Source: Pyrinomonadaceae bacterium (GTDB lineage Bacteria > Acidobacteriota > Blastocatellia > Pyrinomonadales > Pyrinomonadaceae). From it: a stretch of 64,000 nucleotides of DNA. Below are positions 23,051 through 63,339 of the stretch, piece by piece. The position numbers and the translations under genes were made by a program. Below the pieces are notes generated by a model. The model ran no database searches, was not told the DNA's origin, and saw only the letters and a program-made list of their open reading frames with translations. The stretch is from NCBI GenBank assembly GCA_035940695.1, contig DASZEQ010000029.1, positions 106,548 to 170,547 on the forward strand. Reading direction: 5' to 3'. Each line of letters starts with the position of its first letter. Positions within the stretch are counted from its first letter, which is position 1.

Positions 23051-23139
23051 TAGCTATTAGCTCTCAGCCGTCAGCTTTCAGCAAATTCAACTTTCAGCAA
23101 ACTCAACGCGTCTGGCTGATGGCCGAAAGCTGACGGCTC
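23051..23139. repeat. Heptamer-hairpin element, CAGCYNN/GCTGAYR family (etfB-etfA junction)
   Basis: Left arm tAGCTAT tAGCTCT cAGCCGT cAGCTTT cAGCAAA. Right arm gGCTGAT gGCCGAA aGCTGAC ggctc. agccgtcagctttc pairs with gaaagctgacggct. Confidence 0.85.
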
Positions 23140-23913
23140 TTAAAATATTCTGGCTTCGGTTCGTAATTTCTCCGCGAGTTGCGCTGCCCCGGCTTTGGCG
23201 TCGCCGTCGCCGAGAAACTGCGTCTGTTTGGTCTTTTGCGGAAAGTAAACTTTCGTGATTCGTTGATGCGCGGCCGCGCCCACGGCTTCCGCCGAAGGTG
23301 CGACCTCTTTAATCTCTTTCTTCTTGGCCGCCATGATGCCCTTCAGAGTCGCGTAGCGAATCTGGCTGATGCCGGATTGGATCGTGAGCAGCGCGGGGCG
23401 CGTCATCGCGTACCACTGATACCAGCCGCTCTCCAATTCCCGCTTCACACGCAACCCCTCGCCCGACGCGTCAACCTCGATCACGATGGTCGCGTGCGGC
23501 AGCCCCAGCAACTCCGCGAGGATCACGCCAGTCTGCGCGTAGCCGTTGTCGTCGGATTGCAAGCCGGTCAGGACGAGATCGGCCTGCTCGTCTTTGATGG
23601 CCTCGGACAAAACTCTGGCCGCCGCGTAAGGGCCGAGTTGAACCGTGTCGTCCGAGACGACGTGGATCGCGCGGTCAGCCCCGCGTGCGAGCGCGTCCTT
23701 AATGACGCTCTTGACGCGTTGCGGCCCGAGCGAGCAGACGACGACTTCGCCGCCGTGTTTCTCTTTCAGACGCAGAGCCTCTTCGAGCGCGTAGCCGTCC
23801 GACTCGTTGACTTCATAGGAGAGGTCGCCCTCCTCGATCCACGTCTCGCTTTTGTTGATCCGCAGGATCGCATCCTTGTTGGCGACCTGCTTCATAAGCA
23901 CAATAATTTTCAT
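23140..23913 (-). CDS. etfB: Electron transfer flavoprotein beta subunit
   Basis: ETF-beta family N-terminus MKIIVLMKQV and conserved core. Adjacent to etfA. Confidence 0.92.
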   Translation of the reverse strand: MKIIVLMKQVANKDAILRINKSETWIEEGDLSYEVNESDGYALEEALRLKEKHGGEVVVCSLGPQRVKSVIKDALARGADRAIHVVSDDTVQLGPYAAARVLSEAIKDEQADLVLTGLQSDDNGYAQTGVILAELLGLPHATIVIEVDASGEGLRVKRELESGWYQWYAMTRPALLTIQSGISQIRYATLKGIMAAKKKEIKEVAPSAEAVGAAAHQRITKVYFPQKTKQTQFLGDGDAKAGAAQLAEKLRTEARIF

Positions 23914-23918
23914 GATGA

Positions 23919-23995
23919 AGCTATCGGCCGTCAGCCATCAGCCGTCAGCAAAAAGCGTTAAAGCTGATTGCTGAAAGCTGATGGCTGACGGCTCT
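23919..23995. repeat. Heptamer-hairpin element, GCTGAYR family (fabF-etfB junction)
   Basis: agctatc ggccgtc agccatc agccgtc agc ... agctgat tgctgaa agctgat ggctgac ggct. gccgtcagccatcagc pairs with gctgatggctgacggc. Confidence 0.88.
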
Positions 23996-23998
23996 TTC

Positions 23999-25255
<1,257 letters not shown>

Positions 25256-25440
25256 ATTACTGCTCCTCCCTCCGAGGGATTGCTCGCGGCCGTCGCCCCG
25301 CCCGGTGCGCGCCAGAAAGGCGCGGGCACAGCGACGACTCTCAAGGTGACGGAAATTTCCTGCCGGAGTAAAACGGCGACCGGCGAGGCGCGCTTGGGAT
25401 GCCGCCGCGTGGCGGCAACGGCGACCCGGTCGCGCCCGTC

Positions 25441-25692
25441 TTACGCCTTGTTCAAATGCTGATCTATGTAGTTATAAGCGTCGCGCACGCTCTGAATTTT
25501 CTCGGCGTCCTCGTCGGGGATTTCGATACCGAACTCTTCTTCGAAACGCATGACGAGTTCGACGGTGTCGAGCGAGTCCGCACCCAGATCGTCTATGAAG
25601 CGGGCGTTCGGCGTCACCTCGTTTTCGTCCGCGCCGAGTTCGTCCACAATGATCTGTTTCACTTTATTCTCAATCTCTGCTTGATCGGGCAT
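25441..25692 (-). CDS. acpP: Acyl carrier protein
   Basis: [14 protein letters not shown] phosphopantetheine attachment motif; 83 aa. Confidence 0.95.
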
Positions 25693-25773
25693 CGTAGTTC
25701 TGCTCCTTCGGTCAATTAAAAAATAGAAAAACTTGGTCTTTGAGTTAGGGGCAAATTAAAACACGCCCGCACG

Positions 25774-26736
25774 TTAATTGCTACCACCCGCGGCCTGACT
25801 CTCCGTGAGCGCGGCGCGCGCGGCTTCAAGGCTCGCGGGGTCTGCCGCCCTCAGGCAGAGCGCATCCGGCACGATCTGTTTAACCAGACCGGACAGCACT
25901 TTGCCGGGGCCGACCTCGACAAAAGTTTTTACGTTTTTGCTCTCGATATAGTTAGCACAGAGCAGCCACTGCACGGGCGCGGTGACTTGTCTCAAGAGAT
26001 TCCCGCGCGCGTCCGCTCCCTTGTCGTATTCGGCCGCATCGACGTTGGCGACCAGCGGCACGCTCAAATCCGAAAACTCTATCTTCTCCAAATCTGCGGC
26101 CAGACGTTCCTGCGCCGGTTGCATCAGGGCGCAATGGAAAGGCGCGCTGACCGGCAACTTCGTGACGCGTTTCGCCCCTCTGGCTCTCAACAGTTCCATC
26201 GCGCGTTCGACCGCCGCCGTGTGCCCCGCGATGACGACCTGCTTCAGCGAGTTGATATTGGCCGGGCTGCACACTTCGCCCTCCTGCGCCGCCTCACGGC
26301 AAGCCTCTTCCACGACCTCTTCGCCCACGCCGAGAATCGCGGCCATCGCGCCGACGCCGACCGGCACGGCCTCTTGCATGTAACGGCCGCGCGCACGCAC
26401 CGTCCTGACCGCATCCGTGAGAGATAAAGACCCCGCTGCGACGAGAGCGGAATATTCGCCGAGGCTATGTCCGGCCACCAACTGCGGGCGCGGAAAGCCT
26501 TCCGCTTCCATTGCGCGCAAGGCCGCGATTGAAACGGTCAGGATCGCGGGCTGCGTGTTCTCCGTCAGACGCAATGTTTCGTCAGGCCCTTCAAAGCAGA
26601 GTTGCGAAAGCGAAAAGCCGAGCGCGTCGTCGGCCTCCGCGAAGACATCGCGCGCCGCCGGAAATCGCTCCGCCAGTTCACGCCCCATCCCGACGGATTG
26701 CGAGCCTTGTCCCGGAAAAATGTATGCGACGGTCAT
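25774..26736 (-). CDS. fabD: Malonyl-CoA:ACP transacylase
   Basis: FPGQGSQ and GHSLGEYSA motifs. Confidence 0.93.
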   Translation of the reverse strand: MTVAYIFPGQGSQSVGMGRELAERFPAARDVFAEADDALGFSLSQLCFEGPDETLRLTENTQPAILTVSIAALRAMEAEGFPRPQLVAGHSLGEYSALVAAGSLSLTDAVRTVRARGRYMQEAVPVGVGAMAAILGVGEEVVEEACREAAQEGEVCSPANINSLKQVVIAGHTAAVERAMELLRARGAKRVTKLPVSAPFHCALMQPAQERLAADLEKIEFSDLSVPLVANVDAAEYDKGADARGNLLRQVTAPVQWLLCANYIESKNVKTFVEVGPGKVLSGLVKQIVPDALCLRAADPASLEAARAALTESQAAGGSN

Positions 26737-26746
26737 TTGAAATCCG

Positions 26747-26812
26747 GTTGAAGGGAAAGGGTGAAGGAAAATCAGTCTTCCCTTCTTCCTCTTATACCCT
26801 TCTACCCCTGCT
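26747..26812. repeat. Heptamer-hairpin-like element, GAAGGGN family (fabH-fabD junction), imperfect
   Basis: Purine arm gaaggga aagggtg aaggaaa. Pyrimidine arm cttccct tcttcct cttatac ccttcta. Period 7 is visible but the pairing is imperfect. Confidence 0.5.
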
Positions 26813-26821
26813 CCTTAGAAC

Positions 26822-27811
26822 TTACCAGCGCATCAAGACCGCGCCCCAAGTGACGCCGCCGCCGAAGGAAGCGAGCAGCACGAGGTCGCCTTCGCTGACG
26901 CGTCCCTGCTCGACACACTCGTCGAGCGCAATCGGGATCGAGGCCGAAGAGGTGTTGCCGTGCATGGCGATATTGGAATAGACGATCCCTTCGTCAACTT
27001 TCAGGTTGTTCGCCACGGCGTCCGTGATGCGTTGATTGGCCTGATGCGGGATGAACAGTTTCACGTCCGAGCCTTTGTAGCCCGCCTCTTCCAGCACCTC
27101 GCGCGACACGTCGGCCATCGAACGCACGGCCACTTTGAACAACTCGTTGCCCTTCATGCGAAAGAAGTGCTGGCCGCTCGTCACGTTGTCGGCGGTGATG
27201 CCGAGGCGCGTGCCGCCGCCGGGCGCGTAGAGTTGTTCGGCGTAACGCCCGTCGGAGCGAATGCGCGTGCCGAGGATGCCGCGCTCGTCCGAGTCGGACG
27301 CGCCGACGAGAGCCGCCCCCGCGCCGTCGCCGAAGATAACGCACGTCGAACGATCCGTGTAGTCAACATAACGCGTTAAAACCTCCGCGCCGATGACGAG
27401 CGCGTAACGCGCCTGCCCGCCCCGGATCATCTGGTTGGCGAGCGTCAAACCGTAGAGGAAGCCGGAGCAGGCGGCGGCCAGATCGAAGGCGGCGGCGCGG
27501 TGCGCGCCGAGTTCGGTCTGGATCAAACAACCGGTCGAGGGGAGTATCTGGTCGGGCGTGACGGTGGCGCAGATGAGCAGGTCGATCTCGGACGGGTCGA
27601 TGCGCGCGCGCTCGATGGCCTGCCGCCCGGCGCGGACGGCGAACATCGAAGTGTACTCGCCCTCGGCGGCCTTGTGCCGCTCCTTGATGCCCGTGCGCGA
27701 AGTGATCCAGTCGTCCGACGTTTCGACCAACTTTTCGAGGTCGGCGTTCGTTAATACGCCTTCGGGGTAAGCGCGCCCCGTGCTCAAAATGCGGGCGTTC
27801 GTATTCGCCAT
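26822..27811 (-). CDS. fabH: 3-oxoacyl-ACP synthase III
   Basis: KAS III motifs (AACSGF active-site Cys, HQAN, GNTSSAS). Confidence 0.93.
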   Translation of the reverse strand: MANTNARILSTGRAYPEGVLTNADLEKLVETSDDWITSRTGIKERHKAAEGEYTSMFAVRAGRQAIERARIDPSEIDLLICATVTPDQILPSTGCLIQTELGAHRAAAFDLAAACSGFLYGLTLANQMIRGGQARYALVIGAEVLTRYVDYTDRSTCVIFGDGAGAALVGASDSDERGILGTRIRSDGRYAEQLYAPGGGTRLGITADNVTSGQHFFRMKGNELFKVAVRSMADVSREVLEEAGYKGSDVKLFIPHQANQRITDAVANNLKVDEGIVYSNIAMHGNTSSASIPIALDECVEQGRVSEGDLVLLASFGGGVTWGAVLMRW

Positions 27812-27813
27812 CT

Positions 27814-28899: not shown

Positions 28900-28935
28900 C
28901 TTGAGGCGCGTTTTGAAGTGACCGCCCGAAACCGC

Positions 28936-29121
28936 TTAGACTTCGGTGTTGACGCGAACCACTTCACGGCCTTTGTAATGACCGCACTTGGGGCAGACGC
29001 GATGGGGCATGCGCGGCTCCTGACAGTTCGGGCAGGTCTGTGTCTGCGGGGCGCGCAGCGCGTCGTGCGCACGGCGTTTGCCCGTGCGCGCTTTGGAATG
29101 TCTTCGTTTTGGATTAGGCAT
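28936..29121 (-). CDS. rpmF: 50S ribosomal protein L32
   Basis: MPNPKRRHSKARTGKRRAH N-terminus with CxxC...CxxC zinc ribbon; 61 aa. Confidence 0.93.
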   Translation of the reverse strand: MPNPKRRHSKARTGKRRAHDALRAPQTQTCPNCQEPRMPHRVCPKCGHYKGREVVRVNTEV

Positions 29122-29134
29122 AATAGCTCCGTAA

Positions 29135-29199
29135 GTAAATAGTGGATCGTGGGTCGTAAATAGTGAGAAATCGTTTTATCCGTCTACGATTCACCATTT
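29135..29199. repeat. Heptamer-hairpin element, GTNNATC/AATCGTS-related family (yceD-rpmF junction), imperfect
   Basis: gtaaata gtggatc gtgggtc gtaaata gtgagaa, then loop, then ttatccgtctacgattcaccattt. The right arm overlaps the last codons of yceD. Confidence 0.6.
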
Positions 29200-29720: not shown

Positions 29721-29787
29721 GGCTCGTCCCCGGCAGGCGCGCACAGTCACAAATATCCGGCGCACGCAAAAGGAGCAATTATAGCGG

Positions 29788-31065
29788 TCAGCGCGCGGGT
29801 GTCAACGTGCCGAAGCCGACTTTCTCCAGCGCATCCTGACGCAACAAGTCGGCCAAGCGTTTGTCGCCCCCCGTGAGCAGGCGTTTCCGGCGATGCCGCC
29901 CCGCGCCGAAAAAATCGTGTAGCAGCGTCTCGTCCGATACGTCGGGGGCGGCGGCCTGACGTTTTTTCGTCCCGCCCCCCGCGCCCGTCGCCGCGCCCGC
30001 TTTCACCTTCAGCGCGCGCGCCGTCGCCAGAGCTTTTTGCGCCGGCTTGGCCTCGCCCAGTTGCGTCTGAATATAGCCTAACAACTGAAAGGTCGCCGCG
30101 TAGTTTTCGTCTGCCTCGACGGCTTTGTTGGCGTGCCTGAGCGCGGTACGCAGGCGACCCAGACGCGCCGACGCGAAACCCAACAGGTAATGCGCTTCGG
30201 CGCAGCGTCTCGCGTCGAGGGCTTGCTTGAAGTGTGCGTGCGCGCCCGCCCAATTATCTTCCTCGGCGTCGAAGCGTCCGAGCGCGTAATGCGCGGCGTA
30301 TGACGCGCCACGCTTCTCGATTGAATCGTGCAGCAGTGTGCGCGCCTGTTCCACTTCGCCCTCGTCGCCGCAGGCGATGCCGAGCAATAGGTAGACCTGC
30401 GCGCTGGCGGGTTGCGCTTCATGCGCCCGTTGCAGGTAGGCGCGGGCGAGCGCGAATTTGCCTTCGCGGAAGAATTGCAGGCCGAGGATGAAATTGAGCG
30501 TCGCGTGGGCGGGCGCGAGCGCGGAGGCGCGTTCCAACTCGCGTTTCGCGCGCGCCGTTTTCCCCGCGCCCAACAACTCCAGCCCGCGCCCGACGAACTC
30601 CGCGAAAACTTCTCTCTCCGCCCCCTGATAATCGTCCATGATGCTGGCGCGCAGAAATTCAACGTCGCTCAATTCCTTGCTCGCCGCCGCCTTCTCGCCC
30701 GCGAGCGCGGCGCGATACATGCTGTCGAGTCTCTGGCGGTCGGCCTTCCCGGTCTCGATCAGCAAGTCGATCAAACTTTCGAGCAGCGTGTGATCCGACA
30801 GCGCAATCTGCGACTGCTTCAAGAGCAGTTCGAATCCCCTTTCGAGCCGCTCGGCAAAGCGCAGCAGATTGTTTTCCAACAAAGAGACGCGCTCCATCAA
30901 CCCTTCGGCGTGTTGCGCCCCGGCCGTCACGTCTTCCTCGAAACGCAGCGTCGAAGGCTCGACGACCAGCATCAGGCGCGTCCCGCAACGCCCGCACAAC
31001 TCTTCACCGAGCGGGTTGGCCGCGCGGCATCTCTGGCAACGTATCTCTTGGAAACTTCTTCTCAT
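29788..31065 (-). CDS. TPR-repeat protein with N-terminal zinc ribbon
   Basis: CQRCRAANPLGEELCGRCG, then a coiled region and multiple TPR-like repeats. Start taken at MRRSFQEI (31065), because the track ORF upstream of it reads through the hairpin repeat. Confidence 0.75.
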   Translation of the reverse strand: MRRSFQEIRCQRCRAANPLGEELCGRCGTRLMLVVEPSTLRFEEDVTAGAQHAEGLMERVSLLENNLLRFAERLERGFELLLKQSQIALSDHTLLESLIDLLIETGKADRQRLDSMYRAALAGEKAAASKELSDVEFLRASIMDDYQGAEREVFAEFVGRGLELLGAGKTARAKRELERASALAPAHATLNFILGLQFFREGKFALARAYLQRAHEAQPASAQVYLLLGIACGDEGEVEQARTLLHDSIEKRGASYAAHYALGRFDAEEDNWAGAHAHFKQALDARRCAEAHYLLGFASARLGRLRTALRHANKAVEADENYAATFQLLGYIQTQLGEAKPAQKALATARALKVKAGAATGAGGGTKKRQAAAPDVSDETLLHDFFGAGRHRRKRLLTGGDKRLADLLRQDALEKVGFGTLTPAR

Positions 31066-31075
31066 ATCAAAAATA

Positions 31076-31149
31076 GTAAATCGTGAATCGTCAATCGTGA
31101 ATAGAGAAGAACTGTTTTCTCTATTCACGATTGACGATTCACGATTTAC
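31076..31149. repeat. Heptamer-hairpin element, AATCGTS family (hbd-TPR junction), perfect 33-bp stem
   Basis: gtaaatc gtgaatc gtcaatc gtgaata gagaa, loop gaactgtt, then the exact reverse complement. Overlaps the hbd stop codon by 4 nt. Confidence 0.95.
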
Positions 31150-32000
31150 GTCTTCTGGTATTCGTAAAACCCGCGCCCGGTTTTGCGGCCGAGCCAACCG
31201 GCGTCAACGTAACGCTTGAGCAGCGGGCAGGGGCGATACTTAGGGTCGCCCAGTTCTTCGTGCAAGACGTTGAGGATGGCGAGGCACACGTCGAGGCCGA
31301 TGAAGTCTGCGAGCGTGAGCGGCCCCATCGGGTGATTCATGCCGAGTTTCATGATGCCGTCGATTGCTTCGCGCGTGGCGACCGATTCGTAGAGCGCGAA
31401 GATGGCCTCGTTGATCATGGGCATCAGGACGCGATTGGAGACGAAGCCCGGCGAGTCGTTGCATTCGAGCGGAATCTTTTCGAGCCGTTCGGTCAGCGCG
31501 TGCGTGCGCGCGTAAGTCTCGTCGGAGGTGGCGATGCCGCGAATCACCTCGACGAGTTTCATCACCGGCACGGGGTTCATAAAGTGCATGCCGATGACGC
31601 GTTCGGGGCGGCGCGTCGCCCCGCCGAGTTTCGTGATCGAGATGGAAGAGGTGTTCGAGGCGAGGATGGCTTCGGGCGCGGTCAGTTCGTCGAGCGCGCG
31701 GAAGATTTCCGCCTTGACCGCAAAATTCTCCGTCACGGCTTCGACGACGAACTGCGCCTCTTTGAGCGCGTCCAACTCGGTCGTCGCGCTGATGCGGCCG
31801 ATGATGGCGCGCTTCTCCTCTTCCGCGAGACGCGCTTTGTCCACGTCGCGTTGCAGGCTGCGGTCGATGCTCTTGAGGCCGCGCTCCAAAAACTCGTCTT
31901 TCACGTCGCGCATGACGACCGTGTAGCCCGCACGCGCCGCCACCTGTGCGATGCCGTTGCCCATCGTCCCCGCGCCGATCACCCCGATTGTCTCTGTCAC
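31146..32000 (-). CDS. hbd: 3-hydroxybutyryl-CoA / 3-hydroxyacyl-CoA dehydrogenase
   Basis: Rossmann motif [15 protein letters not shown]. 3HCDH N- and C-terminal domain motifs. Start taken at GTG 32000; the track ORF extends to 32186. Confidence 0.9.
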
Positions 32001-32022
32001 TTTTCGCGTCTCCCCTGAAAGT

Positions 32023-33739: not shown

Positions 33740-33817
33740 GTGACAAGTGACAGGTGACAGGTGACAAGTTAGAAGAACAAGCTGTTTTAACTTGTCACCC
33801 GTCACCTGTCACTTGTC
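33740..33817. repeat. Heptamer-hairpin element, GTGACAR family (upstream of thiolase)
   Basis: gtgacaa gtgacag gtgacag gtgacaa gttagaa, then loop, then ttaacttgtcacccgtcacctgtcacttgtc. About 30-bp stem with one mismatch. Confidence 0.93.
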
Positions 33818-35881: not shown

Positions 35882-37368
35882 GCGGGCGCACGATCCCCGA
35901 GCGCATCCCGCGCACGCCCATCCTCTTTGGGACGGACGGCTGGCGCGCCGTCATCGCGCACGAGTTCACCTTCGCCAATCTCGAACGCGTGGCGCAAGCC
36001 TACGCGGACTTTCTCAACGGGGCGCAACAACAGCAACCGGCGCAACCCGAACGCGCGGGCGCGCCGACGGGTGCGCCGCACGCCGTCGTCGGCCACGACC
36101 GACGCTTCCTGTCGGAGAAGTTTGCCGCGCGCGTCGGCGAGGTGTTGGCAGGCAATGGCATCCGTGTCGCGATGTTCGCAGGCGACGTGCCGACGCCGCT
36201 CGTCTCTTGGGCGGTGCGCGAGCGCGGGGCGGCGGGCGGCGTCGTCATCACGGCCTCGCACAATCCTGCGGAGTTCAACGGCTTCAAGATCAAAGCTCCT
36301 TGGGGCGGGAGCGCGACGCGCGAGACGACGGCCGCCGTCGAGGCTCTCGTTGACGCGCAACCGCCGCGTCGCAGCGACCTGACGGACGCGATGCGCGGCG
36401 AATTGGATGATGCGCTGGAAAGTTATCGCGCGCAGATCGCGTCTTACATCGATCTCGAACGGTTGAAGGGTGCGCGGGCGCGCGTCGTGATCGACCCGAT
36501 GCACGGGTCGGGCGGTCGTTGGGTGGAAAGTTTCCTCGTCGGCGGCGCGCTCGAAGTGGAGACGATCCGCGCCGGACGCGACACGCAGTTCGGCGGCGTC
36601 AACCCCGAACCGATTGATCGCAACCTCGCCCCCTTGCGCGAGCGCGTCGGCGCGGCGGGCGCGCTCGTCGGGTTGGCGACCGACGGCGATGCCGATAGAG
36701 TCGGCGCGGTCAACGAACTGGGCGAGACGATGACGATGCATGAAGTCGTGCCGCTTCTGCTCCTGCACCTCGCGCGTCGGCGCGGGATGACGGGCGGCGT
36801 CGTGCGCACCTTCTCGCAATCCGTGCTGACGAAGCGTATTGCCGCCGCGCACAACTTGAAACTTTACGAAACGCCCATCGGTTTCAAGTACGTCGCAGAC
36901 CTCATGCTGCGCGAAGACATTCTCATCGGCGCGGAAGAATCCGGCGGCGTCGGCGTCAAAGGCCACATCCCGGAGCGCGACGGCATCCTCAATTCCCTGC
37001 TCTTTCTCGAAGCCGTCGTCGCCGCCGAGGGCAAGACGCCTTCGGAGATGGTCAGGGAGATGCACCGCGAGTTCGGCGAGTTCTACTTCGGGCGGCGCGA
37101 CCTGCATCTCGAAGTGGCGCGCGGTTTGAACCTCGTCGAGACGCTTTCCGTCTCACCGCCCGAAGCAGTGGCGGGTCACACCGTCCACGGCTTCTCGCAG
37201 ATGGACGGGATGAAGCTCGTCTTCGGCGACGAATCATGGCTGCTCTTTCGCCAGTCCGGCACAGAACCCGTCCTGCGCATCTACGCCGAAGCCACTTCCG
37301 TCGCAAAGGTGAACGAACTGCTCGACGCCGGTTGCGCCATGGCGAATAAAGCAGAGGTCAGAGGTTAG
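35878..37368 (+). CDS. Phosphomannomutase/phosphoglucomutase
   Basis: Active-site TASHNPAEFNGFK, Mg-binding DGDADR, and the GEESGG sugar-binding loop. The stop codon lies inside a heptamer array. Confidence 0.9.
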   Translation: MSGRTIPERIPRTPILFGTDGWRAVIAHEFTFANLERVAQAYADFLNGAQQQQPAQPERAGAPTGAPHAVVGHDRRFLSEKFAARVGEVLAGNGIRVAMFAGDVPTPLVSWAVRERGAAGGVVITASHNPAEFNGFKIKAPWGGSATRETTAAVEALVDAQPPRRSDLTDAMRGELDDALESYRAQIASYIDLERLKGARARVVIDPMHGSGGRWVESFLVGGALEVETIRAGRDTQFGGVNPEPIDRNLAPLRERVGAAGALVGLATDGDADRVGAVNELGETMTMHEVVPLLLLHLARRRGMTGGVVRTFSQSVLTKRIAAAHNLKLYETPIGFKYVADLMLREDILIGAEESGGVGVKGHIPERDGILNSLLFLEAVVAAEGKTPSEMVREMHREFGEFYFGRRDLHLEVARGLNLVETLSVSPPEAVAGHTVHGFSQMDGMKLVFGDESWLLFRQSGTEPVLRIYAEATSVAKVNELLDAGCAMANKAEVRG

Positions 37369-37552
37369 AGGTTAGAGGTTAGAAGTTAGGAGTTAGAGCT
37401 TTGACGTTAGCGGTCACAGGTCAGAGGTCAGTTTTACTCTGCTCCCTCCGCCGGACTCATCTTCGCCCGACAACTTTTATTGGTCTCAACAAAACTCATT
37501 CGCGCTCGGCATGCTTTCAACTAACCTCTAACCTCTGATCTCTAATCTCTCT
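37353..37552. repeat. Heptamer element, AGAGGTY family: 11-unit direct array plus distal inverted arm
   Basis: 37353-37431 holds 11 consecutive 7-mers (agaggtc agaggtt x3 agaagtt aggagtt agagctt tgacgtt agcggtc acaggtc agaggtc). After an 86-nt spacer, 37519-37552 reads aactaacctctaacctctgatctctaatctct (complement words). Confidence 0.9.
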
Positions 37553-37557
37553 TTCTT

Positions 37558-38391
37558 ATGCCTGAGCTACCCGAAGTCGAACTCGTCGCGCGCGCCCTCG
37601 ATGGCCTCGTCAGTTCGCGGCGCGTGTTGGCCGCGAGACTTTTGCGCGCCGGTCTCGCGCCGGACACGCCGCCTGCCGTCTTCGCACGCGCCCTGCGCGG
37701 CCGTCGCATCGAACGCGTCACGCGGCGCGGCAAGCACATCCTCTTCGAGTTTGAAGGCGCGCAAACGCTCATCGCGCATCTGCGCATGACCGGGAGATTT
37801 ATGCTCCTGCCGCCCGAAGCCGCGCCGCCCAAGCACACCCACGCCCTCTTTTATCTCGACGACGAACGGCGGCTCGTCTTCTCCGACCAGCGACACTTCG
37901 GGATGATGAAACTCGTCGGCACGGCCGATCTGGCGCACGCGAAAGAACTGCGCCTGCTCGCCCCCGAACCCTTCTCCGGCGACTTCACGCCCGACTACCT
38001 GCGGACGACCTTCGCCCGCACGCGCCGCACACTGAAAGAGACGCTGCTCGATCAAAGGAAGGTCACGGGTCTCGGCAACATCTACGCCGCCGAAGCTCTG
38101 TTCCTCGCGCGCATCAACCCCTTTCGCGCCGCCGCCGAAATCTCACCGCGCCGCCTGCCCCGACTTCATCAAGCCATCCTCGACGTGTTCAACGAATCAA
38201 TCGCGCACGGCTCGACCATGAACGTTGACCCCGAAAACATCGACGGGAGCTACTACGACGGCGGCTTCAACGGCCGCTGGCGCGTCTACGACCGCGAAGG
38301 CGAACCCTGTCTCGACTGCCGCGCCTCCATTCGACGCATCACGCACGCCGGACGCTCCACCTATTTCTGCCCGCGCTGCCAGCAAAGATAA
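37558..38391 (+). CDS. mutM: Formamidopyrimidine-DNA glycosylase
   Basis: N-terminal MPELPEVE and C-terminal zinc finger CxxC...CxxC (CLDC...CPRC). Confidence 0.93.
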   Translation: MPELPEVELVARALDGLVSSRRVLAARLLRAGLAPDTPPAVFARALRGRRIERVTRRGKHILFEFEGAQTLIAHLRMTGRFMLLPPEAAPPKHTHALFYLDDERRLVFSDQRHFGMMKLVGTADLAHAKELRLLAPEPFSGDFTPDYLRTTFARTRRTLKETLLDQRKVTGLGNIYAAEALFLARINPFRAAAEISPRRLPRLHQAILDVFNESIAHGSTMNVDPENIDGSYYDGGFNGRWRVYDREGEPCLDCRASIRRITHAGRSTYFCPRCQQR

Positions 38392-38396
38392 AAGCG

Positions 38397-38516
38397 GAGG
38401 TTAGAGGTCAGAGGTCAGAGGTCAGTAGAGACAAATTGAAGGCCGGTGAAAGCGCGTAAGATCACTTTCACCGGCCTTTTTTTACTAACCTCTAACTTCT
38501 AACCTCTGACCTCTCG
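38397..38516. repeat. Heptamer-hairpin element, AGAGGTY family, enclosing a terminator
   Basis: Left arm gaggtta gaggtca gaggtca gaggtca. Right arm ctaacct ctaactt ctaacct ctgacct. The arms flank the hairpin at 38439-38483. Confidence 0.9.
38439..38483 (+). terminator. Intrinsic terminator of mutM (nested in the heptamer element)
   Basis: 14-bp stem aaggccggtgaaag/ctttcaccggcctt followed by a T7 run. Confidence 0.85.
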
Positions 38517-41031: not shown

Positions 41032-41144
41032 CGCGTTTGAGAAAAGACGTGGTGAGTTAAGGCGACTTGCGGCCACGTAAAATAAACCGCTAAACAGCAC
41101 GACTCTTCCGTCGAAGCGCCACCCTCTTCGAGCCGCTTTTCTGA

Positions 41145-41178
41145 AGTCCCGCGTTGTTTGGCGCGGGACTTTCGTTTT
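41145..41178 (+). terminator. Intrinsic terminator/attenuator inside the 5' leader
   Basis: 9-bp stem agtcccgcg/cgcgggact with an 8-nt loop, followed by ttcgtttt. Lies between the promoter and the coding start. Confidence 0.65.
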
Positions 41179-41179
41179 G

Positions 41180-41252
41180 AGCCGTCAACTATCAGCGGTC
41201 AGCTATCAGCTTTTTGTCTGTGCTGACGGCTGACGGCTGACCGCTGACAGCT
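41180..41252. repeat. Heptamer-hairpin element, GCTGAYR family (leader of the methionine gene)
   Basis: agccgtcaactatcagcggtcagctatcagc, loop tttttgtctgt, then gctgacg gctgacg gctgacc gctgaca gc. Ends 6 nt before the ATG. Confidence 0.9.
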
Positions 41253-55860: not shown

Positions 55861-55887
55861 CGGTGAGGGCGGTTCAGGAGTTTTACC

Positions 55888-56538: not shown

Positions 56539-56548
56539 AAATAGCACT

Positions 56549-56626
56549 CGGCCGTCAGCTATCAGCGGTCAGCCGGACAGGCTGCATTTGCTCATAGCTG
56601 ATGGCTGATAGCTGACGGCTGACAGC
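56549..56626. repeat. Heptamer-hairpin element, GCTGAYR family (nuoB-nuoC junction)
   Basis: cggccgtcagctatcagcggtcagc, then loop, then gctgatg gctgata gctgacg gctgaca gc. Ends 5 nt before the nuoC ATG. Confidence 0.9.
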
Positions 56627-56631
56627 TTCTT

Positions 56632-57177: not shown

Positions 57178-57178
57178 C

Positions 57179-57259
57179 GTTTCGAGTTTCCGGTTTCGGG
57201 TTTCAAGTTAAAAACTTCAGACCTGAGACTTGAAACTTGAAACCTGAAACTTGAAACTT
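57179..57259. repeat. Heptamer-hairpin element, GTTTCNR/CTTGAAA family (nuoC-nuoD junction)
   Basis: gtttcga gtttccg gtttcgg gtttcaa gtt, loop aaaa, then acttcag acctgag acttgaa acttgaa acctgaa acttgaa actt. Abuts ATG 57260. Confidence 0.9.
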
Positions 57260-58471: not shown

Positions 58472-58474
58472 CAT

Positions 58475-58546
58475 TCAGCTATCAGCTATCAGCGTTCGGC
58501 CGAACCGGTTGAATTTGCTGAAAGCTGACGGCTGATGGCTGACAGC
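58475..58546. repeat. Heptamer-hairpin element, GCTGAYR family (nuoD-nuoE junction)
   Basis: tcagctatcagctatcagc, then loop, then gctgaaa gctgacg gctgatg gctgaca gc. Ends 6 nt before the nuoE ATG. Confidence 0.9.
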
Positions 58547-58552
58547 TTCTTT

Positions 58553-59110
58553 ATGAGTAAACAGTTCACGCCCAACAATCCTTTGCCGCAGGAAGCGCCC
58601 GTGCCGGATGAGATCGCCACGTTTTCGGCGGCGGTCGAAGCGGAGATCGACGGGCATCTGGCGAAGTACCCGTTGAAGCGTTCGGCGATTCTGCCGCTCA
58701 TGTTCATCGTGCAGCGCGAGCGCGGTTATCTGGACAAGCCGGGCGTGGCCTATCTCGCGGATCGTCTGGGCGTGCGCGTCACGGACATCTGGGAGGTGGC
58801 GACCTTCTACTCGATGATCAATACCGAGCCGGTCGGCAAGTATCACCTGCAAGTTTGCCGCACGCTCTCGTGCAAGATCGTCGGCGCGGACAAGATCACG
58901 GAACACTGCGCGAAACGCCTCGGCATCAAGCCCGGCGAGACGACCGAAGACGGGCAGTTTTCGCTCTCCGAAGTTGAATGTCTCGGCTCGTGCGGCACAG
59001 CCCCGATGATGCAGATCGGGTTCGACTATCACGAGAACCTGACGCCGGAGAAGGTGGACGAACTGATCGAACGTTGTCGCAGCAATCAACTCTCGAACGG
59101 CGTGCGCTAA
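58553..59110 (+). CDS. nuoE: NADH-quinone oxidoreductase subunit E
   Basis: 2Fe-2S ligands (VCRTLSC ... CLGSCGTAPMM). Start taken at ATG 58553 (MSKQFTP), because the track start 58535 lies inside the repeat. Confidence 0.93.
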   Translation: MSKQFTPNNPLPQEAPVPDEIATFSAAVEAEIDGHLAKYPLKRSAILPLMFIVQRERGYLDKPGVAYLADRLGVRVTDIWEVATFYSMINTEPVGKYHLQVCRTLSCKIVGADKITEHCAKRLGIKPGETTEDGQFSLSEVECLGSCGTAPMMQIGFDYHENLTPEKVDELIERCRSNQLSNGVR

Positions 59111-59140
59111 AGTTTCTCGAAAATTTAAAGGCTCGATTTT

Positions 59141-60475
59141 TTGTCTCCTGTAAAGAATATGTTTATCGGTGCAATCGGTTGCGAACCGCTACAACTCGCA
59201 CGCGTCGGTCTGGAGCGTTCCGAGACGCTCGAAACCTACCGGAAGCACGGCGGCTACGAGTCGCTCGGCAAGGTACTGGGCGGCATGTCGCCCGACGACG
59301 TAATCGGCGAGTTGAAGAAGTCCGCGCTGCGCGGGCGCGGCGGGGCGGGTTTCCCCACGGGCATGAAGTGGAGTTTCGTGCCGAAGGATTCGCCGAAGCC
59401 GAAATACGTCGTCTGCAACGCGGACGAGTCGGAGCCGGGCACCTTCAAAGACCGCTACATCATGGAACGCGACCCGCACATGCTGATCGAAGGCATGCTC
59501 ATCGCCGCCTACGCGCTCGGCTCGAAGACCTGTTACATCTACACGCGCGGCGAATATCGCTATCTCATCGAGATCATGGATCGCGCGATTGAAGAGGCGC
59601 GTGCGGCCGGGTTGGTCGGCGAAAAGATTCTGGGAACGGACTTCGGGTGCGAGGTTTACACGCATTCGGGCGCGGGCGCGTACATCTGCGGCGAAGAGAC
59701 CGCGCTCTTGAACTCGCTCGAAGGCTTGCGCGGCCACCCGCGCATGAAGCCGCCCTTCCCCGCCGTCGCGGGTCTCTACGGCTGCCCCACGGTCGTCAAC
59801 AACGTCGAGACTTTGACCGCCGTGCCGGACATCATCAGGATGGGCGGCGAGGCGTATCAAAAGTTGGGCACGGAGAAGAGCGGCGGCACGAAGCTCTGGT
59901 CGGTCAGCGGTCACGTCAACCGCCCCGGCGTGTACGAGTTGCCGATGGGCTACGCGGACATGGAAAAGTTCATCATGGAGGACTGTCAGGGCATCCCGAA
60001 CGGGCGCAAGCTCAAGGCCGTGATTCCGGGCGGGTCGAGCGTCTACATCATGCCCGCGTCCGACATCGTGGGCAAGAAAGTGACGATGGATTACGAGGGA
60101 CTTGTGGCCGCCGGTTCGATGGTCGGGTCGGGCGGCTTCATCGTGATGGACGACACGGTGGACATCTTTGAATCCACGAAAAACCTGACCGAGTTTTACA
60201 AGCACGAATCGTGCGGCTGGTGTACGCCCTGCCGCGAAGGTACGGACTGGCTCGTCAAAGTTTTTAAGCGCATCGCGCGCGGCGAAGGCAAGGCGGACGA
60301 CGCGCAATTGCTTCTCGACCTGTGCGACAACATCGAAGGCAAGTCGTTTTGCCCGCTCGGCGATGCCGCTTCGTGGCCGATCCAGTCGGCCATCAAGAAA
60401 TTCCCGGAAGACTTCCGACGCCATCTCGCGCCGCTCGCCAAGAGCGAAGCGTTGCCGACGATGGCGGGCGGTTGA
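59141..60475 (+). CDS. nuoF: NADH-quinone oxidoreductase subunit F
   Basis: GRGGAGFPTG FMN/NADH motif, ESCGWCTPCREG 4Fe-4S motif. The start could be TTG 59141 or ATG 59159. Confidence 0.95.
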   Translation: MSPVKNMFIGAIGCEPLQLARVGLERSETLETYRKHGGYESLGKVLGGMSPDDVIGELKKSALRGRGGAGFPTGMKWSFVPKDSPKPKYVVCNADESEPGTFKDRYIMERDPHMLIEGMLIAAYALGSKTCYIYTRGEYRYLIEIMDRAIEEARAAGLVGEKILGTDFGCEVYTHSGAGAYICGEETALLNSLEGLRGHPRMKPPFPAVAGLYGCPTVVNNVETLTAVPDIIRMGGEAYQKLGTEKSGGTKLWSVSGHVNRPGVYELPMGYADMEKFIMEDCQGIPNGRKLKAVIPGGSSVYIMPASDIVGKKVTMDYEGLVAAGSMVGSGGFIVMDDTVDIFESTKNLTEFYKHESCGWCTPCREGTDWLVKVFKRIARGEGKADDAQLLLDLCDNIEGKSFCPLGDAASWPIQSAIKKFPEDFRRHLAPLAKSEALPTMAGG

Positions 60476-60510
60476 AAGGCGGCACAAAGATTCGACGGTG
60501 GGGGCGACCG

Positions 60511-60930
60511 ATGAAAAGAGCTAAAGCGTTCATCCTCTCGCTTGCGCTGCTGCTGGGCGCGTCGAGCGTGCCCAGCATGCCCGTAGCGGCGGAAAGTTTT
60601 TCGTGGGGCGCGGCGGGACAATGCCGGGGCACGGACGTGCCCGTCCGAAAACAGTTGCGCTTCGGGCGCGGGCGCACAACGGCGGTCGTGCGGGACAGGA
60701 TCAAACTCTGCACGAGCCACGACTATTATCTCCGCGCGCGCCGTGGGCAGCGGATGAGCGTCCATCTCGTCGCGGGCAAAAAAACTTCCTTCACGGTTTA
60801 CGCGCCGACCGACCGCCTCTCCGACGGCGAGTGGGACTGGACGGGCGAATTGCCGGAGGATGGCGAATATCGGATCAGTATCGGCACGGACGTAACGGCG
60901 AGCTACACACTGGAAGTCACGATTCGTTAA
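60511..60930 (+). CDS. Small secreted hypothetical protein encoded inside the nuo operon
   Basis: ATG 60511 (MKRAKAFILSLALLLGASSVPSMPVAA signal peptide), 139 aa, beta-rich (YYLRARRGQRMSVHL...FTVYAP...GEYRISIG...YTLEVTI). The track ORF extends upstream into nuoF. Confidence 0.6.
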   Translation: MKRAKAFILSLALLLGASSVPSMPVAAESFSWGAAGQCRGTDVPVRKQLRFGRGRTTAVVRDRIKLCTSHDYYLRARRGQRMSVHLVAGKKTSFTVYAPTDRLSDGEWDWTGELPEDGEYRISIGTDVTASYTLEVTIR

Positions 60931-60939
60931 TTTAAAAGC

Positions 60940-63240
60940 ATGTCTACCGAACTTATAAAAGTCACGATCAACGGCAACCTCTACGAGGTGGAGAAAGGCG
61001 CGCGTCTCATCGACGTGTGCCGCGAGAAGGGGCACGCCGTCCCCTCCTTCTGTTACTACGCAGACCTCGCGCTGCAAGCCTCTTGCCGCATGTGTCTCGT
61101 GCGGATCGAGAAGATGCCGAAGTTGCAAACGTCGTGCACGATCACCTGCACGGACGGCATGAGCGTCACGACCGAGAGCGAGGAGATCGAGAAGGCGCAG
61201 CGCGGGATGGTGGAATTCCTACTGGCGAATCACCCGCTCGATTGCCCTGTCTGCGACCGTGGCGGCGAATGCGAGTTGCAGGAGATGGTCTTCGACTGGG
61301 GCGGCCTCGAAGAACGCTTTCAGGAGAAGAAAAACTACTACCCCGAAAAATTCCTCTCCCCCATCGTCGCCAACGACCCGCAGCGTTGCATCCTGTGCAA
61401 ACGCTGCACGCGCGTCTGCGACGAGTGGATGGGCGAGGACGCGATTGAAGCGGGCGGGCGCGGCGCGAACACCGTCATCGGCACGTTCGACGGCTGGCTC
61501 AACTGCTCGCAGTGCGGCAACTGCATCGAAGTCTGCCCGACGGGCACTCTGCTCGATGCGACCTACAGGCATCAAGCGCGCCCGTGGGAACTCTCGCAGA
61601 CCACGACGACCTGCAACTTCTGCTCCGACGGCTGCCAGATGTCTCTGGGGTCGCGTGCGGGCGAAGTGATGCGTTCCGTGGCGCGCGACCGCTACGTCAA
61701 CGGCATCAACGGCGAGTTTCTCTGTATCAAAGGCCGCTTCGCGCACCCTTTCATCAATCACGAGGAGCGCATCAAGACGCCGCTCATCCGTTACAAGAAG
61801 GGCGGCAAGTTGATCCCGGCGACGTGGGACGAGGCCATCCGGCACACGGCGGCGAAACTGCAAGAGATCAGGCAAGCGCACGGCGGCGACTCAATCGGCG
61901 TCGTCGGCAGCCCGCGCCTGACGAACGAGGCCAACTACGCGTTGCTCAAATTCGCGCGCGAGGTGTTGGCGACGAACAACTACACGGCGACCGACGCTTT
62001 CTCGCTCGCGCCGTTCTTCGCAAACCTGAGCGCGCCGCTCGCCACGCACCGCGACATTCGCCACGCCAAGACGCTCATCGTCATCGGCGGCGAGCCGGAA
62101 GAGTTGCAGCCGCTCACGGGTCGCCAGATCAGGCAGGCCGTCCGAAACGGCGGCGCGAAACTCGTCATCGTCAACAGCGTGCCGATCCGCCTGAAACAAG
62201 CGGCGACGCAGTTCATACACATGAATCCCGGCGCGGACGACGCGGCCGTGCTCGCCTTCGCGGGCAACGAATACGCGACGGCCGCGCACAAGATGGGCGT
62301 CGAAGCGCAGGAGTTGGTTGACGCGCGGCGCATCATCGAAGAGACGAAGGGCGATGTCGTCGTCATGTTCGGCGAGTTGAGCGCGACGGCGCAGACCGCG
62401 CTGGCGAACATCGCCACGGCTTACGGCGAGAGCGAAGGACGACGCTTCCTGTTTCACCCGTTGCCGCTCTACAACAACAGCATCGGCGTGCACGACCTCG
62501 GCCTGTTGAACGGCGCGCTCGACGCCGAGGGCATGCTCGACGCGGCGGGCGCAACGTTGCGCGCGCTCTACGTCGCGGGCAGCTTCCTGCCGCGACATCT
62601 CGCGGGGCGCGGCGACGCGCTCTCGAAGTTGGACTTCCTCGTCGTGCAGGAGATGTTCGAGACCGAGACGACGCGCCACGCAGACGTGGTCTTCCCCGCC
62701 GCCTCTTACGCGGAGACGGACGGAACGTTCACGAACAACAGCGGCCTCGTCCAGCGCGTGCGCCAGTCGATCCCGCCCGTCCACCAATCGCGGCCGGACT
62801 GGATGATCACGGACGCGCTCGCGCTCGCGCTCGGCGTAAATTTCGACTTCCAGTGGTCGGCCGGTAAAGTCTTTCTCGAACTCGCGCGCAACACGACCGC
62901 CTATGCCGGGATGAAGTACGCCCTATTGAAAGACGAGTCGCAGCCCGTACAGGCGAGGCACGCGGTCGCCGGAGAGGGCGACAACGCGGCGGTGGCGAGC
63001 GCGCTCCAAGACCTGCGCGCGACGGTCGAAGCGTTGAGCATCGAGGGCGAAAAGATCGAGGGCACGCCGCCCATCGGCCACGAACTGTTCAAGCCGGGCA
63101 CGCTGACGAGCAAGACGCCGCAGTTCCCCCTGCTCGACGCAGGCAACCCGAAGCCGCCCACGGTGCTCGTGTCGCCGCTCTATCAAATTTCCGTTGACCC
63201 GGCGCTGCGCCGCGCAACGGTGGTCGCCGCCGGAGACTGA
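60940..63240 (+). CDS. nuoG: NADH-quinone oxidoreductase subunit G
   Basis: N-terminal 2Fe-2S (CYYADLALQASCRMC), HxxxCxxCxxxxxC, 4Fe-4S motifs (CILCKRCTRVC, CSQCGNCIEVCP) and a molybdopterin-oxidoreductase-like domain. Confidence 0.93.
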   Translation: MSTELIKVTINGNLYEVEKGARLIDVCREKGHAVPSFCYYADLALQASCRMCLVRIEKMPKLQTSCTITCTDGMSVTTESEEIEKAQRGMVEFLLANHPLDCPVCDRGGECELQEMVFDWGGLEERFQEKKNYYPEKFLSPIVANDPQRCILCKRCTRVCDEWMGEDAIEAGGRGANTVIGTFDGWLNCSQCGNCIEVCPTGTLLDATYRHQARPWELSQTTTTCNFCSDGCQMSLGSRAGEVMRSVARDRYVNGINGEFLCIKGRFAHPFINHEERIKTPLIRYKKGGKLIPATWDEAIRHTAAKLQEIRQAHGGDSIGVVGSPRLTNEANYALLKFAREVLATNNYTATDAFSLAPFFANLSAPLATHRDIRHAKTLIVIGGEPEELQPLTGRQIRQAVRNGGAKLVIVNSVPIRLKQAATQFIHMNPGADDAAVLAFAGNEYATAAHKMGVEAQELVDARRIIEETKGDVVVMFGELSATAQTALANIATAYGESEGRRFLFHPLPLYNNSIGVHDLGLLNGALDAEGMLDAAGATLRALYVAGSFLPRHLAGRGDALSKLDFLVVQEMFETETTRHADVVFPAASYAETDGTFTNNSGLVQRVRQSIPPVHQSRPDWMITDALALALGVNFDFQWSAGKVFLELARNTTAYAGMKYALLKDESQPVQARHAVAGEGDNAAVASALQDLRATVEALSIEGEKIEGTPPIGHELFKPGTLTSKTPQFPLLDAGNPKPPTVLVSPLYQISVDPALRRATVVAAGD

Positions 63241-63339
63241 AAGGAGGAGTGAGGGCAGAAGGGTGACGGATGAATAAGAACGCCGCTCGCGCGTTTGGCT
63301 TACACATCTTCATCCCTTTGCCCTCCGCCCTCATCCCTT
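63241..63339. repeat. Heptamer-hairpin-like element, GAAGGGN/GAGGGNN family (nuoG-nuoH junction), imperfect
   Basis: Purine arm aaggagg agtgagg gcagaag ggtgacg gatgaat. Pyrimidine arm tcttcatccctttgccctccgccctcatccctt. Ends 6 nt before the nuoH ATG. Confidence 0.6.

Follow-up and report, generated by a model that had tools for sequence, protein, structure and literature searches.

The window considered here is a stretch of 64,000 nucleotides (nt) from a Pyrinomonadaceae bacterium (GenBank assembly GCA_035940695.1, contig DASZEQ010000029.1, forward-strand positions 106,548 to 170,547), in which etf, fab, yceD-rpmF and nuo genes, among others, are separated by an element that we will refer to as the heptamer hairpin. 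In it, several tandem copies of a 7-nt word are followed, after a loop, by tandem copies of the reverse complement of that word, and it occurs at 13 loci between positions 23051 and 63339. The Pyrinomonadaceae are among the commonest soil Acidobacteriota, and almost all of them are uncultured. The loci are as follows (dG, folding free energy in kcal/mol; z, z-score of the fold; TRF, Tandem Repeats Finder; UTR, untranslated region):

23051-23139, minus strand: CAGCYRN/GCTGAYR heptamer hairpin, from the etfB stop codon (23140) to the etfA ATG (23043); dG -34 to -42
23919-23995, minus strand: CAGCCRT heptamer hairpin, from the fabF stop codon (23999) to the etfB ATG (23913); z -10.4; TRF period 7
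26747-26812, minus strand: degenerate heptamer hairpin, GAAGGGN-like, between fabH and fabD; dG -22
29135-29199, minus strand: degenerate heptamer hairpin, AATCGTS/AAATAGT-like, between yceD and rpmF; dG -12 to -19
31076-31149, minus strand: perfect 33-bp heptamer hairpin AATCGTG (33 of 33 pairs), from the hbd stop codon (31146) to the probable ATG of a TPR gene (31065); z -12.3
33740-33817, minus strand: GTGACAR heptamer hairpin, in the 5' UTR of a thiolase gene (ATG 33723); z -11.4
37353-37552, plus strand: AGAGGTY heptamer hairpin, from PMM/PGM to the mutM ATG (37558); TRF 10.9 copies; dG -72
38397-38516, plus strand: AGAGGTC heptamer hairpin, between the convergent genes mutM and DPP-IV; dG -70 to -76
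41180-41252, plus strand: CAGCYRT heptamer hairpin, in a 5' UTR, ending 7 nt before the homocysteine-methyltransferase/methylenetetrahydrofolate reductase (MTHFR) ATG (41258)
56549-56626, plus strand: CAGCYRT heptamer hairpin, between nuoB and nuoC; z -8.2
57179-57259, plus strand: GTTTCRR/YYTGAAA heptamer hairpin, from nuoC to the probable nuoD ATG (57260); z -8.7
58475-58546, plus strand: CAGCTAT heptamer hairpin, from nuoD to the probable nuoE ATG (58553); z -6.6
63241-63339, plus strand: decayed heptamer hairpin, GGGATGA/GAAGGGT family, from nuoG to the probable nuoH ATG (63346); dG -44

The elements had been proposed in a preliminary description of the window, and their reality is borne out. 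Reading of the sequence together with an inverted-repeat finder recovers the word run, the loop and the reverse-complement word run at 13 of 13 loci, in the word families first reported, and RNAfold gives free energies of -19 to -76 kcal/mol over them. Seven representative hairpins (-37 to -61 kcal/mol), each compared with 200 dinucleotide shuffles, have z-scores of -6.6 to -12.3, and in no case were any of the 200 shuffles equally stable. An autocorrelation scan of the window for arrays of at least three units with at least 80% match finds 16 arrays of period 7; 100 dinucleotide shuffles averaged 0.66 such arrays, with 3 as the highest count, and periods 8 to 12 give 0-1 arrays. By TRF, 10 of the 13 loci have a period of 7 (or 14), and all period-7 arrays of at least 2.7 copies in the window fall at these loci. 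In the hairpin at 37353-37552, the 5' arm holds about 11 units (the 10.9 copies lie at 37353-37428), the loop measures 138 nt, and the inverted-repeat finder returns 30-nt arms. Since the region 37353-38516 was reproduced at 100% identity in two independent assemblies from other samples (L091 and L092), the hairpins are not an assembly artefact. Three loci (26747, 29135 and 63241) had been put forward with less certainty and are indeed degenerate, the last being a decayed ortholog of clean GGGATGA hairpins found at the nuoG-nuoH junction of L009, L012 and L014.

The names of the flanking genes were confirmed by Pfam. As claimed, 10 of the 13 loci lie between co-directional genes, the exceptions being 33740 (5' UTR, divergent), 38397 (convergent) and 41180 (5' UTR). 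Roughly one third of the window's spacers of at least 25 nt hold a heptamer hairpin, with none among the 11 spacers of the first 23 kb. Gene bodies had been described as spared except for a few clipped last codons; the elements are mostly intergenic, although those at 29135 and 37353 each overlap five last codons, of yceD (with rpmF following at 28936-29121 on the minus strand) and PMM, respectively.

The same architecture is found in related genomes. Homologs of NuoC and NuoD assign the window to the Pyrinomonadaceae (Acidobacteriota, Blastocatellia). The nuo regions of 87 related contigs were fetched and duplicates removed, leaving 85 loci (labelled L001 and so on) with 1.43 Mb of sequence; a single scan of a genome collection gave the best 80 relatives by NuoD, all of them Pyrinomonadaceae or Blastocatellia, and the material was taken around nuo only. 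This set contains 538 tandem arrays of period 7, whereas period 8 gives 21, period 9 gives 25, and periods 10 to 13 give no more than 7. A strict finder, which admits Watson-Crick pairs only and calls for a stem of at least 16 with at least 85% of it paired, returned 347 hairpins, of which 209 have period-7 arms and only 11 have arms of another period, so that 95% of the periodic hairpins (209 of 220) step by 7. These comprise 78 canonical words, and the reported combination of a constant period with a changing word thus holds far outside the window. Strict heptamer hairpins occur in 72 of the 85 loci, over a GC range of 0.51-0.67, and loci scored as zero by the strict finder often contain imperfect ones. 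An inverted partner was found within 220 nt, the distance searched, for 360 of 425 heptamer arrays (85%). Although 89% of the sequence is coding, 197 of the 209 strict hairpins are intergenic, and 180 of the 195 with a defined context sit between co-directional genes, in agreement with the pattern first noted in the window. Heptamer hairpins are a hallmark of the whole family Pyrinomonadaceae.

Within this set, 24% of nuo junctions hold a strict hairpin, compared to 4% of other co-directional, 8% of divergent and 8% of convergent junctions. In the nuo operon, which has 14 genes, as many as six junctions in a row are occupied. In this sample taken around nuo, 166 of the 191 hairpins assigned to a junction fall inside the operon. 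In the sole cultured strain of the set, the type strain Pyrinomonas methylaliphatogenes K22 (L084 8163-18125), the 21 kb covered contain no more than one hairpin, a degenerate one, which may explain why the elements went unnoticed. In K22, L050 and some metagenome-assembled genomes (MAGs), the nuo spacers are short (4-60 nt), and those of K22 bear motifs resembling the Shine-Dalgarno (SD) sequence. Because K22 and L050 have short spacers without the elements, we regard the latter as gained and dispensable.

Heptamer hairpins were also seen on IMG/VR (viral-labelled) contigs, including L126, L188, L200, L206, L222 and L147, which were found by searching with two tandem words; sometimes several different words occur per contig (19 of 143 loci). 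These contigs suggest that the phenomenon is not confined to chromosomal operons.

The elements measure 60-200 nt, with arms of 16-35 bp (median stem 27 bp, stem GC 0.40) and loops with a median of 26 nt. They take up the whole spacer: the stem begins a median of 3 nt past the stop codon and closes a median of 9 nt short of the start codon (ATG in 159 of 180 cases). An SD-like motif is present at only 9 of 197 genes behind a hairpin, compared to 248 of 1010 other genes. SD-complementary 5-mers occur in just 26% of 5' arms, and an SD-hairpin-AUG bridging arrangement, with the SD 5' of the stem, was rejected on this count; their total of 51, compared to 36.8 +/- 4.5 in permuted words, is a modest excess, and family structure confounds it. 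Nor is there any enrichment of 5' arms with stop codons in all three frames.

The two arms differ in composition. The 5' arm is rich in G and T and poor in C (A 0.26, G 0.29, C 0.11, T 0.34), with G exceeding C in 150 hairpins and the reverse in 19, and the 3' arm is rich in A and C and poor in G, and nearly without start triplets (1.5 vs 8.1 per 100 nt). The same polarity is seen at convergent (6:0) and divergent (8:1) junctions. Its presence at convergent junctions implies that it is not imposed by a downstream start region, and, as it is unchanged by reverse complementation, it does not identify the acting strand; a G-rich 5' arm was accordingly rejected as a strand signal.

Loops vary in content, and may hold a terminator (window 38439-38486), another hairpin (nuoG-nuoH of L001) or a whole gene (L010). 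A comparison of loops across word families yielded only a few significant matches, not a conserved motif, and loops can also flip. The loop motif of the hairpin at 58475-58546, GGTTGAATTTGCTGA, recurs in copies at other junctions and in other genomes. In the L001 nuoG-nuoH spacer (16699-16873), the loop of a GGGATGA heptamer hairpin encloses a period-8 hairpin with TTGATTCA units; at this place in L012 there is only a short two-unit version, which could be a precursor or a remnant. At L010 2235-2667 (ortholog L013 1476-1910), the 'loop' of a hairpin with GTGACGA arms is a complete 125-aa gene of the 23S_rRNA_IVP/bAvd-like type (Pfam E = 5e-38). Four-helix-bundle genes of this family are known to occur in the intervening sequences of rRNA, which are cut out at long stems. 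The gene was considered as an 'autonomous' partner of the elements and rejected, as it occurs at one locus and its ortholog only in 1.4 Mb.

The hairpins are a hazard for ORF (open reading frame) and gene callers, which tend to put start codons within the arms or run ORFs through them (58535 vs 58553; 57251 vs 57260; 29788-31197). The real starts are probably ATG 57260 for nuoD, ATG 58553 for nuoE, ATG 31065 for the TPR gene and ATG 63346 for nuoH. The nuoE start has the conserved tail GCTGACAGCTTCTTTATG, and a conserved tail GCTGACAGCTTCTT(T)ATG likely marks the true starts of nuoC, nuoE and a metH-like gene.

Comparison of orthologous junctions reveals polymorphism both in presence and in the number of 7-nt units. 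L001 and L002 differ by 2 mismatches in 10,954 nt and by two indels only, of 7 nt (GCTGATA) and 14 nt (ATTCACCATTTACT), both of which fall within hairpin arms. Over 20.5 kb, L003 and L004 share 99.86% identity and have indels solely in the nuoG-nuoH hairpin (L003 16781-16860, L004 16781-16881), where one copy is without 21 nt, or three units, of the 3' arm, and where the 26-nt loop of the shorter copy is the exact reverse complement of the other's. A second flipped loop was found between L007 and L008. These indels of 7, 14 and 21 nt point to slippage in situ. Strains that share about 98% identity with the window show roughly double the density of substitutions in the hairpins that they show elsewhere, and these substitutions tend to alter whole units. 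To illustrate, the hairpin at 23051-23139 is kept with substitutions in its arms, that at 23919-23995 has a variant with four perfect CAGCCGT units, and that at 26747-26812 differs at 7 positions of its 3' arm.

Between close relatives the word itself is replaced, and rapidly. Relatives with coding flanks 88-96% identical carry unrelated word families at the same junction; for instance, the nuoB-nuoC word among relatives is CAGCYRT, GTGACAG, GCTGTTA or GCAGTGA. One word family, in turn, recurs at other junctions and in other genomes, and elements are copied to further junctions within a single genome. Pairs of hairpins share a word family in 23% of cases within a locus, compared to 6.5% between loci, and no distance-dependent local spread was seen within 20 kb. 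At some operon junctions, arm pairing nevertheless lasts for a long time, by way of compensatory changes. A GTTTCRA hairpin occupies the nuoC-nuoD junction in 17 genomes with 86-99% NuoD identity, and its arms co-vary (GTTTCAA:TTGAAAC, GTTTCGA:TCGAAAC, GTCTCAA:TTGAGAC), with double-sided changes in 12 of 20 consensus pairs.

We propose that the heptamer hairpins are lineage-specific foldback heptamer-repeat elements of the Pyrinomonadaceae, made by slippage and arm templating and tolerated or kept in operons because the mRNA loops them out, a reading to which we assign a probability of about 0.45. Its DNA-level part, namely foldback elements that change in 7-nt steps, is well supported. Slipped-strand mispairing in steps of 7 nt would build the arrays and make the arms grow and shrink, intrastrand template switching or recombination between the arms would maintain their complementarity and occasionally flip the loop. 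Copies also spread to other junctions of the genome. Heptanucleotides are the favoured unit among long simple sequence repeats (SSRs) in many prokaryotes (quoted in PMC4679880). At the RNA level, the element would be transcribed within its operon and the mRNA would fold a hairpin of 20-35 bp, looping out 60-100 nt and thereby bringing the upstream stop codon and the downstream ATG to about 12 nt from each other at the base of the stem. This close spacing could preserve termination-reinitiation or coupled translation in an SD-poor lineage, and folding could hide the spacer from single-strand-specific RNases and from Rho. If so, operons as tightly coupled as nuo may accept an insertion when it is a palindrome, with selection subsequently maintaining the pairing. 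Such selection on pairing in operons is in line with the compensatory changes, with the concentration of hairpins in nuo and with their being dispensable in relatives whose spacers measure 4-40 nt.

Several points weigh against this proposal. The function of the heptamer hairpins and all of their effects at the RNA level we infer from DNA, and the strain comparisons are based on short-read MAG assemblies. Mismatches on the sense strand are of the G:U type in 124 cases and of the A:C type in 118, showing no preference, and sense and antisense folds are equally stable, so that there is no direct signature of selection on the RNA over the DNA palindrome. Only a few base pairs would be opened by a ribosome halted 3 nt ahead of the stem; any 'unmasking' is weak, and coupling would have to rest on proximity. 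Eleven hairpins (33740 and 41180 in the window, and 9 others) are without an upstream cistron. The polarity of the arms (5' arm G/T-rich in 150 of 169) is explained by neither slippage nor coupling, and the proposal offers no mechanism for the step of 7 nor a route by which copies pass between junctions.

A possible but unlikely alternative for the elements at large is that they are cis-acting RNA elements, either RNase III substrates or protective stem-loops, whose intercistronic processing or stability sets the abundance of operon segments, the heptamers being a by-product. Perfect duplexes of 25-35 bp are classic RNase III substrates. The six-fold enrichment inside nuo, an operon for a multisubunit complex, would suit this role, as would the maintenance of pairing by compensatory change over deep divergence. 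The thiolase hairpin fits as well: a promoter-like site with 11 of 12 consensus matches (TTGACT-16-TATAAT, 33857-33830, minus strand) lies just upstream and the hairpin at 33740 starts about 5-10 nt after the predicted transcription start; it would therefore be the 5'-terminal stem-loop of the thiolase mRNA. Stem-loops at 5' ends are known to stabilise mRNAs, and the RNA-element explanation is plausible for some copies such as this one. A precedent exists in selective RNA processing and stabilisation, which likewise relies on stable hairpins between the cistrons of complex-encoding operons; in C. cellulolyticum, whose cip-cel operon is an example, intergenic stem-loops control subunit stoichiometry (PMC4423207). 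The REP of malE-malF (REP, repetitive extragenic palindrome) is another example. Stem-loops of this class, however, are unique and non-repetitive and their action on RNA has been shown, whereas the heptamer hairpins are repetitive, hypermutable, interchangeable and known from DNA alone. Complex I subunits are needed 1:1, and so differential stability offers no obvious gain; the same junctions are without elements in related genomes, unrelated words are swapped between close relatives, no bias of G:U over A:C is seen on the sense strand, and loop inversion leaves the element intact.

We also consider it unlikely that the heptamer hairpins are non-autonomous mobile elements resembling miniature inverted-repeat transposable elements (MITEs) or REPINs, moved in trans by a dedicated enzyme that recognises the hairpin, such as a Y1 transposase of the IS200/IS605 type (RAYT or TIRYT), for which the heptamers would be reiterated binding sites, as in the Foldback elements of eukaryotes. 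The evidence that recommends this explanation is that paralogous copies in one genome, with the same loop and about 90-100% identity in arms and loop, stand at different junctions with unrelated flanks. Word repertoires are specific to a genome, the elements are polymorphic in presence, one hairpin is nested in another's loop, another has a gene in its loop, and similar hairpins occur on the viral-labelled IMG/VR contigs. Moreover, Acidobacteria have been reported to possess tyrosine transposases associated with terminal inverted repeats (TIRs) as well as TIR repeat families (PMC3733652). Nevertheless, no direct duplication of the target site is visible at the ends of two paralog pairs, the indels of whole units indicate slippage in situ, and at least six word families in 41 kb, with 78 words overall, would call for many enzymes or for one that reads only the period. 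No transposase, RAYT and Y1 included, was seen in the 1.4 Mb sampled around nuo only. Inverted arms are a MITE feature, but the only 'full' element carries the 23S_rRNA_IVP/bAvd-like gene, not a transposase.

REPs are palindromes of 20-40 bp, one end of which bears a GTAG or CGTC tag that stays unpaired (PMC3733652). Like REPs, REPINs and bacterial interspersed mosaic elements (BIMEs), the heptamer hairpins are intergenic, multi-copy and lineage-specific, lie mostly between unidirectional genes, are polymorphic in presence (PMC3733652), are probably transcribed with operons and form families within a genome, and REPINs are hairpins of about 100 nt as well. REPs, however, are single palindromes, usually of one to few families per genome, that merely trail the upstream gene, whereas here the arms are tandem 7-nt units in dozens of words, without a tag, and the hairpin abuts the downstream start codon. 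The REP/BIME class was rejected, as the preliminary description had it, on size and architecture and on the tags: GTAG stands near an end in 27 of 197 hairpins, for which upstream TAG stop codons account, and CGTC in 5 of 197, so that the conserved terminal tag expected of a mobile element of this kind is absent.

A more speculative idea, of rather low probability, is that the 7-nt register, the free word and the fixed polarity are no mutational accidents and mark a new layer of post-transcriptional control in an SD-poor lineage, in which a protein with a footprint of about 7 nt (a cold-shock or S1-type OB-fold, or another factor) gates translation, or else a dedicated enzyme that writes and copies periodic palindromes. 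In the former case, the protein would occupy one arm a unit at a time, thereby opening or closing the hairpin and gating the next cistron across whole operons. If either were true, the direct heptamers of cyanobacteria and Beggiatoaceae would represent this system without its pairing.

We give little credence to the narrower proposal that the units of the arms serve as successive binding sites of a protein specific for single-stranded nucleic acid, such as a cold-shock domain or the S1 OB-fold, whose footprint of about 7 nt would set the register. By loading on one arm it would open or prevent the hairpin and so regulate how the following gene is translated, which would account for the period and perhaps for the polarity. 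Unit length stays fixed as the word changes, and a G/T-rich 5' arm is joined to an A/C-rich, G-poor 3' arm that reaches the start codon, both as such a protein might have it; the direct start-codon heptamers of Nostoc and Beggiatoaceae have likewise been proposed to bind an unknown factor. Bacillus CspB binds the heptamer GTCTTTG/T (PMC1904285), which is contained in the word family GGTCTTT. The words as a whole, however, are no nearer to the CspB consensus than letter-shuffled words, their number (78) speaks against sequence-specific binding, and a register needs no identical successive units.

Three further features of the window bear on termination:

38439-38486, plus strand: canonical GC-rich terminator stem with T-tract, nested in the loop of the hairpin at 38397-38516
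41039-41114, plus strand: SAM-II (SAM_alpha) aptamer, for S-adenosylmethionine, Rfam RF00521, 41.6 bits vs a gathering score of 36
41143-41179, plus strand: U-tract terminator of the SAM-II riboswitch, about 30 nt past the aptamer and directly 5' of the hairpin at 41180

The least probable explanation, that the hairpins are terminators or attenuators of a U-tract-less type, draws on their being stable stem-loops after stop codons and on the T-tract (at least 6 T within 9 nt after the stem) of three of the six at convergent junctions, but 96% of co-directional hairpins are without one (it is present in 7 of 180, or 4%), the stems are long and GC-poor, up to six consecutive nuo genes have hairpins between them, and canonical U-tract terminators stand beside one hairpin and inside another in the same genome. 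The inner stem at 38439-38478, which is followed by T7 on the plus strand, is the sole stem flagged by a terminator consensus scan. The terminator directly before the hairpin at 41180 shows that termination in this organism makes use of canonical structures, from which the heptamer hairpin is distinct. Convergent junctions hold just 6 of the 195 heptamer hairpins with a defined context, compared to 22 of 98 non-periodic hairpins. The heptamer hairpins are effectively excluded as intrinsic terminators, in keeping with the original statement that they are not ordinary ones.

The elements do not coincide with other catalogued classes either, as had been anticipated. An Rfam search (gathering score and E<=1) placed at the hairpins only sub-threshold models of eukaryotic miRNA precursors, which we regard as generic hairpin noise, and SAM_alpha is the only model in the window to pass its gathering score; a search for tRNA and tmRNA genes found none. 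Repeat scans gave no direct repeats of 24-48 nt with unique spacers of similar length, as in CRISPR arrays, the units here being 7 nt and contiguous. Integron attC sites are similar in that they are imperfect palindromes of conserved structure and variable sequence between co-directional genes, but they consist of single R''/L''-L'/R' boxes that flank mobile cassettes beside an integrase, whereas tandem arms stand here next to core genes; the neighbours are nuo, fab, etf and rpmF in an order conserved across more than 80 genomes, not intI cassettes.

The likeness to known heptamer arrays is closer. The preliminary description held that only the unit length is shared with the short tandemly repeated repetitive (STRR) sequences of cyanobacteria. 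However, the 3' arm ends about 9 nt before the ATG, so that the position next to the start codon also matches, and the likeness to the cyanobacterial and Beggiatoaceae heptamers exceeds unit length. The cyanobacterial STRR sequences, the TTTTGAA/TTCAAAA and GACYAAT repeats of Nostoc and the TAACTGA repeats of Beggiatoaceae are all 7-nt intergenic arrays near or overlapping a start codon, and their sense strand is A-rich and G-poor, as is the 3' arm here. A translational role has been proposed for the Nostoc and Beggiatoaceae heptamers (PMC4679880; bioRxiv 10.1101/2022.06.06.494920). These are direct arrays of one or a few fixed words without an inverted partner, whereas 85% of the arrays described here are paired and the word varies; the single inverted case is one reported among 170 repeat sets of Beggiatoaceae BOGUAY. 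Thus, the head-to-tail intergenic 7-nt units of a heptanucleotide SSR or STRR are present in the heptamer hairpins, and the restriction to direct arrays of few words is not.

More distant parallels exist in eukaryotes. The Foldback transposons of Drosophila and the hairpin repeats of organelles have inverted arms of short tandem repeats, invade intergenic DNA and can carry an insert. The repetitive hairpin-forming elements (RHEs) of sponge mitochondria are an example of the latter. Such elements are eukaryotic or organellar, of kilobase scale and of other unit lengths, and the comparison implies no homology or common enzymology.

No earlier account of hairpins with heptamer-array arms was found in the literature searched, in Acidobacteria or elsewhere, consistent with the statement in the preliminary description, and such hairpins appear to be new, while intergenic palindromic repeats and direct heptamer arrays were already known. 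The elements join these two separately studied phenomena, the palindromic repeats of the REP, REPIN and MITE kind and the preference of prokaryotes for 7-nt tandem repeats. They provide a natural system in which 7-nt slippage, arm homogenisation and loop flip-flop can be read from population data, and they pose the question of how an SD-poor organism translates an operon whose start codons each lie 9 nt behind a hairpin of -40 to -70 kcal/mol. In practical terms, they could serve as hypervariable strain markers.

Three other features of the window deserve mention. The SAM-II aptamer at 41039-41114 lies, in an acidobacterium, upstream of a fused homocysteine S-methyltransferase/MTHFR gene, with a canonical terminator between the two. 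SAM-II is usually described as translational, in Proteobacteria and Bacteroidetes, and a transcriptional expression platform for this copy would be unusual. An upstream ORF coupling the riboswitch to the hairpin at 41180 was sought and none was found, the canonical terminator lying between them. At 29805-29778 on the minus strand, the terminal part of the TPR gene contains a perfect sigma-70 consensus (TTGACA-16-TATAAT, 12 of 12), a short way upstream of yceD-rpmF-plsX-fabHD. Finally, a conserved ORF of about 137 aa without a Pfam match (60476-60939) splits the nuo operon between nuoF and nuoG. It is also present in L001 (13972-14385), L003 and L005, and more distant relatives have a HicA/HicB toxin-antitoxin pair at this position (L006/L007 13869-14337).

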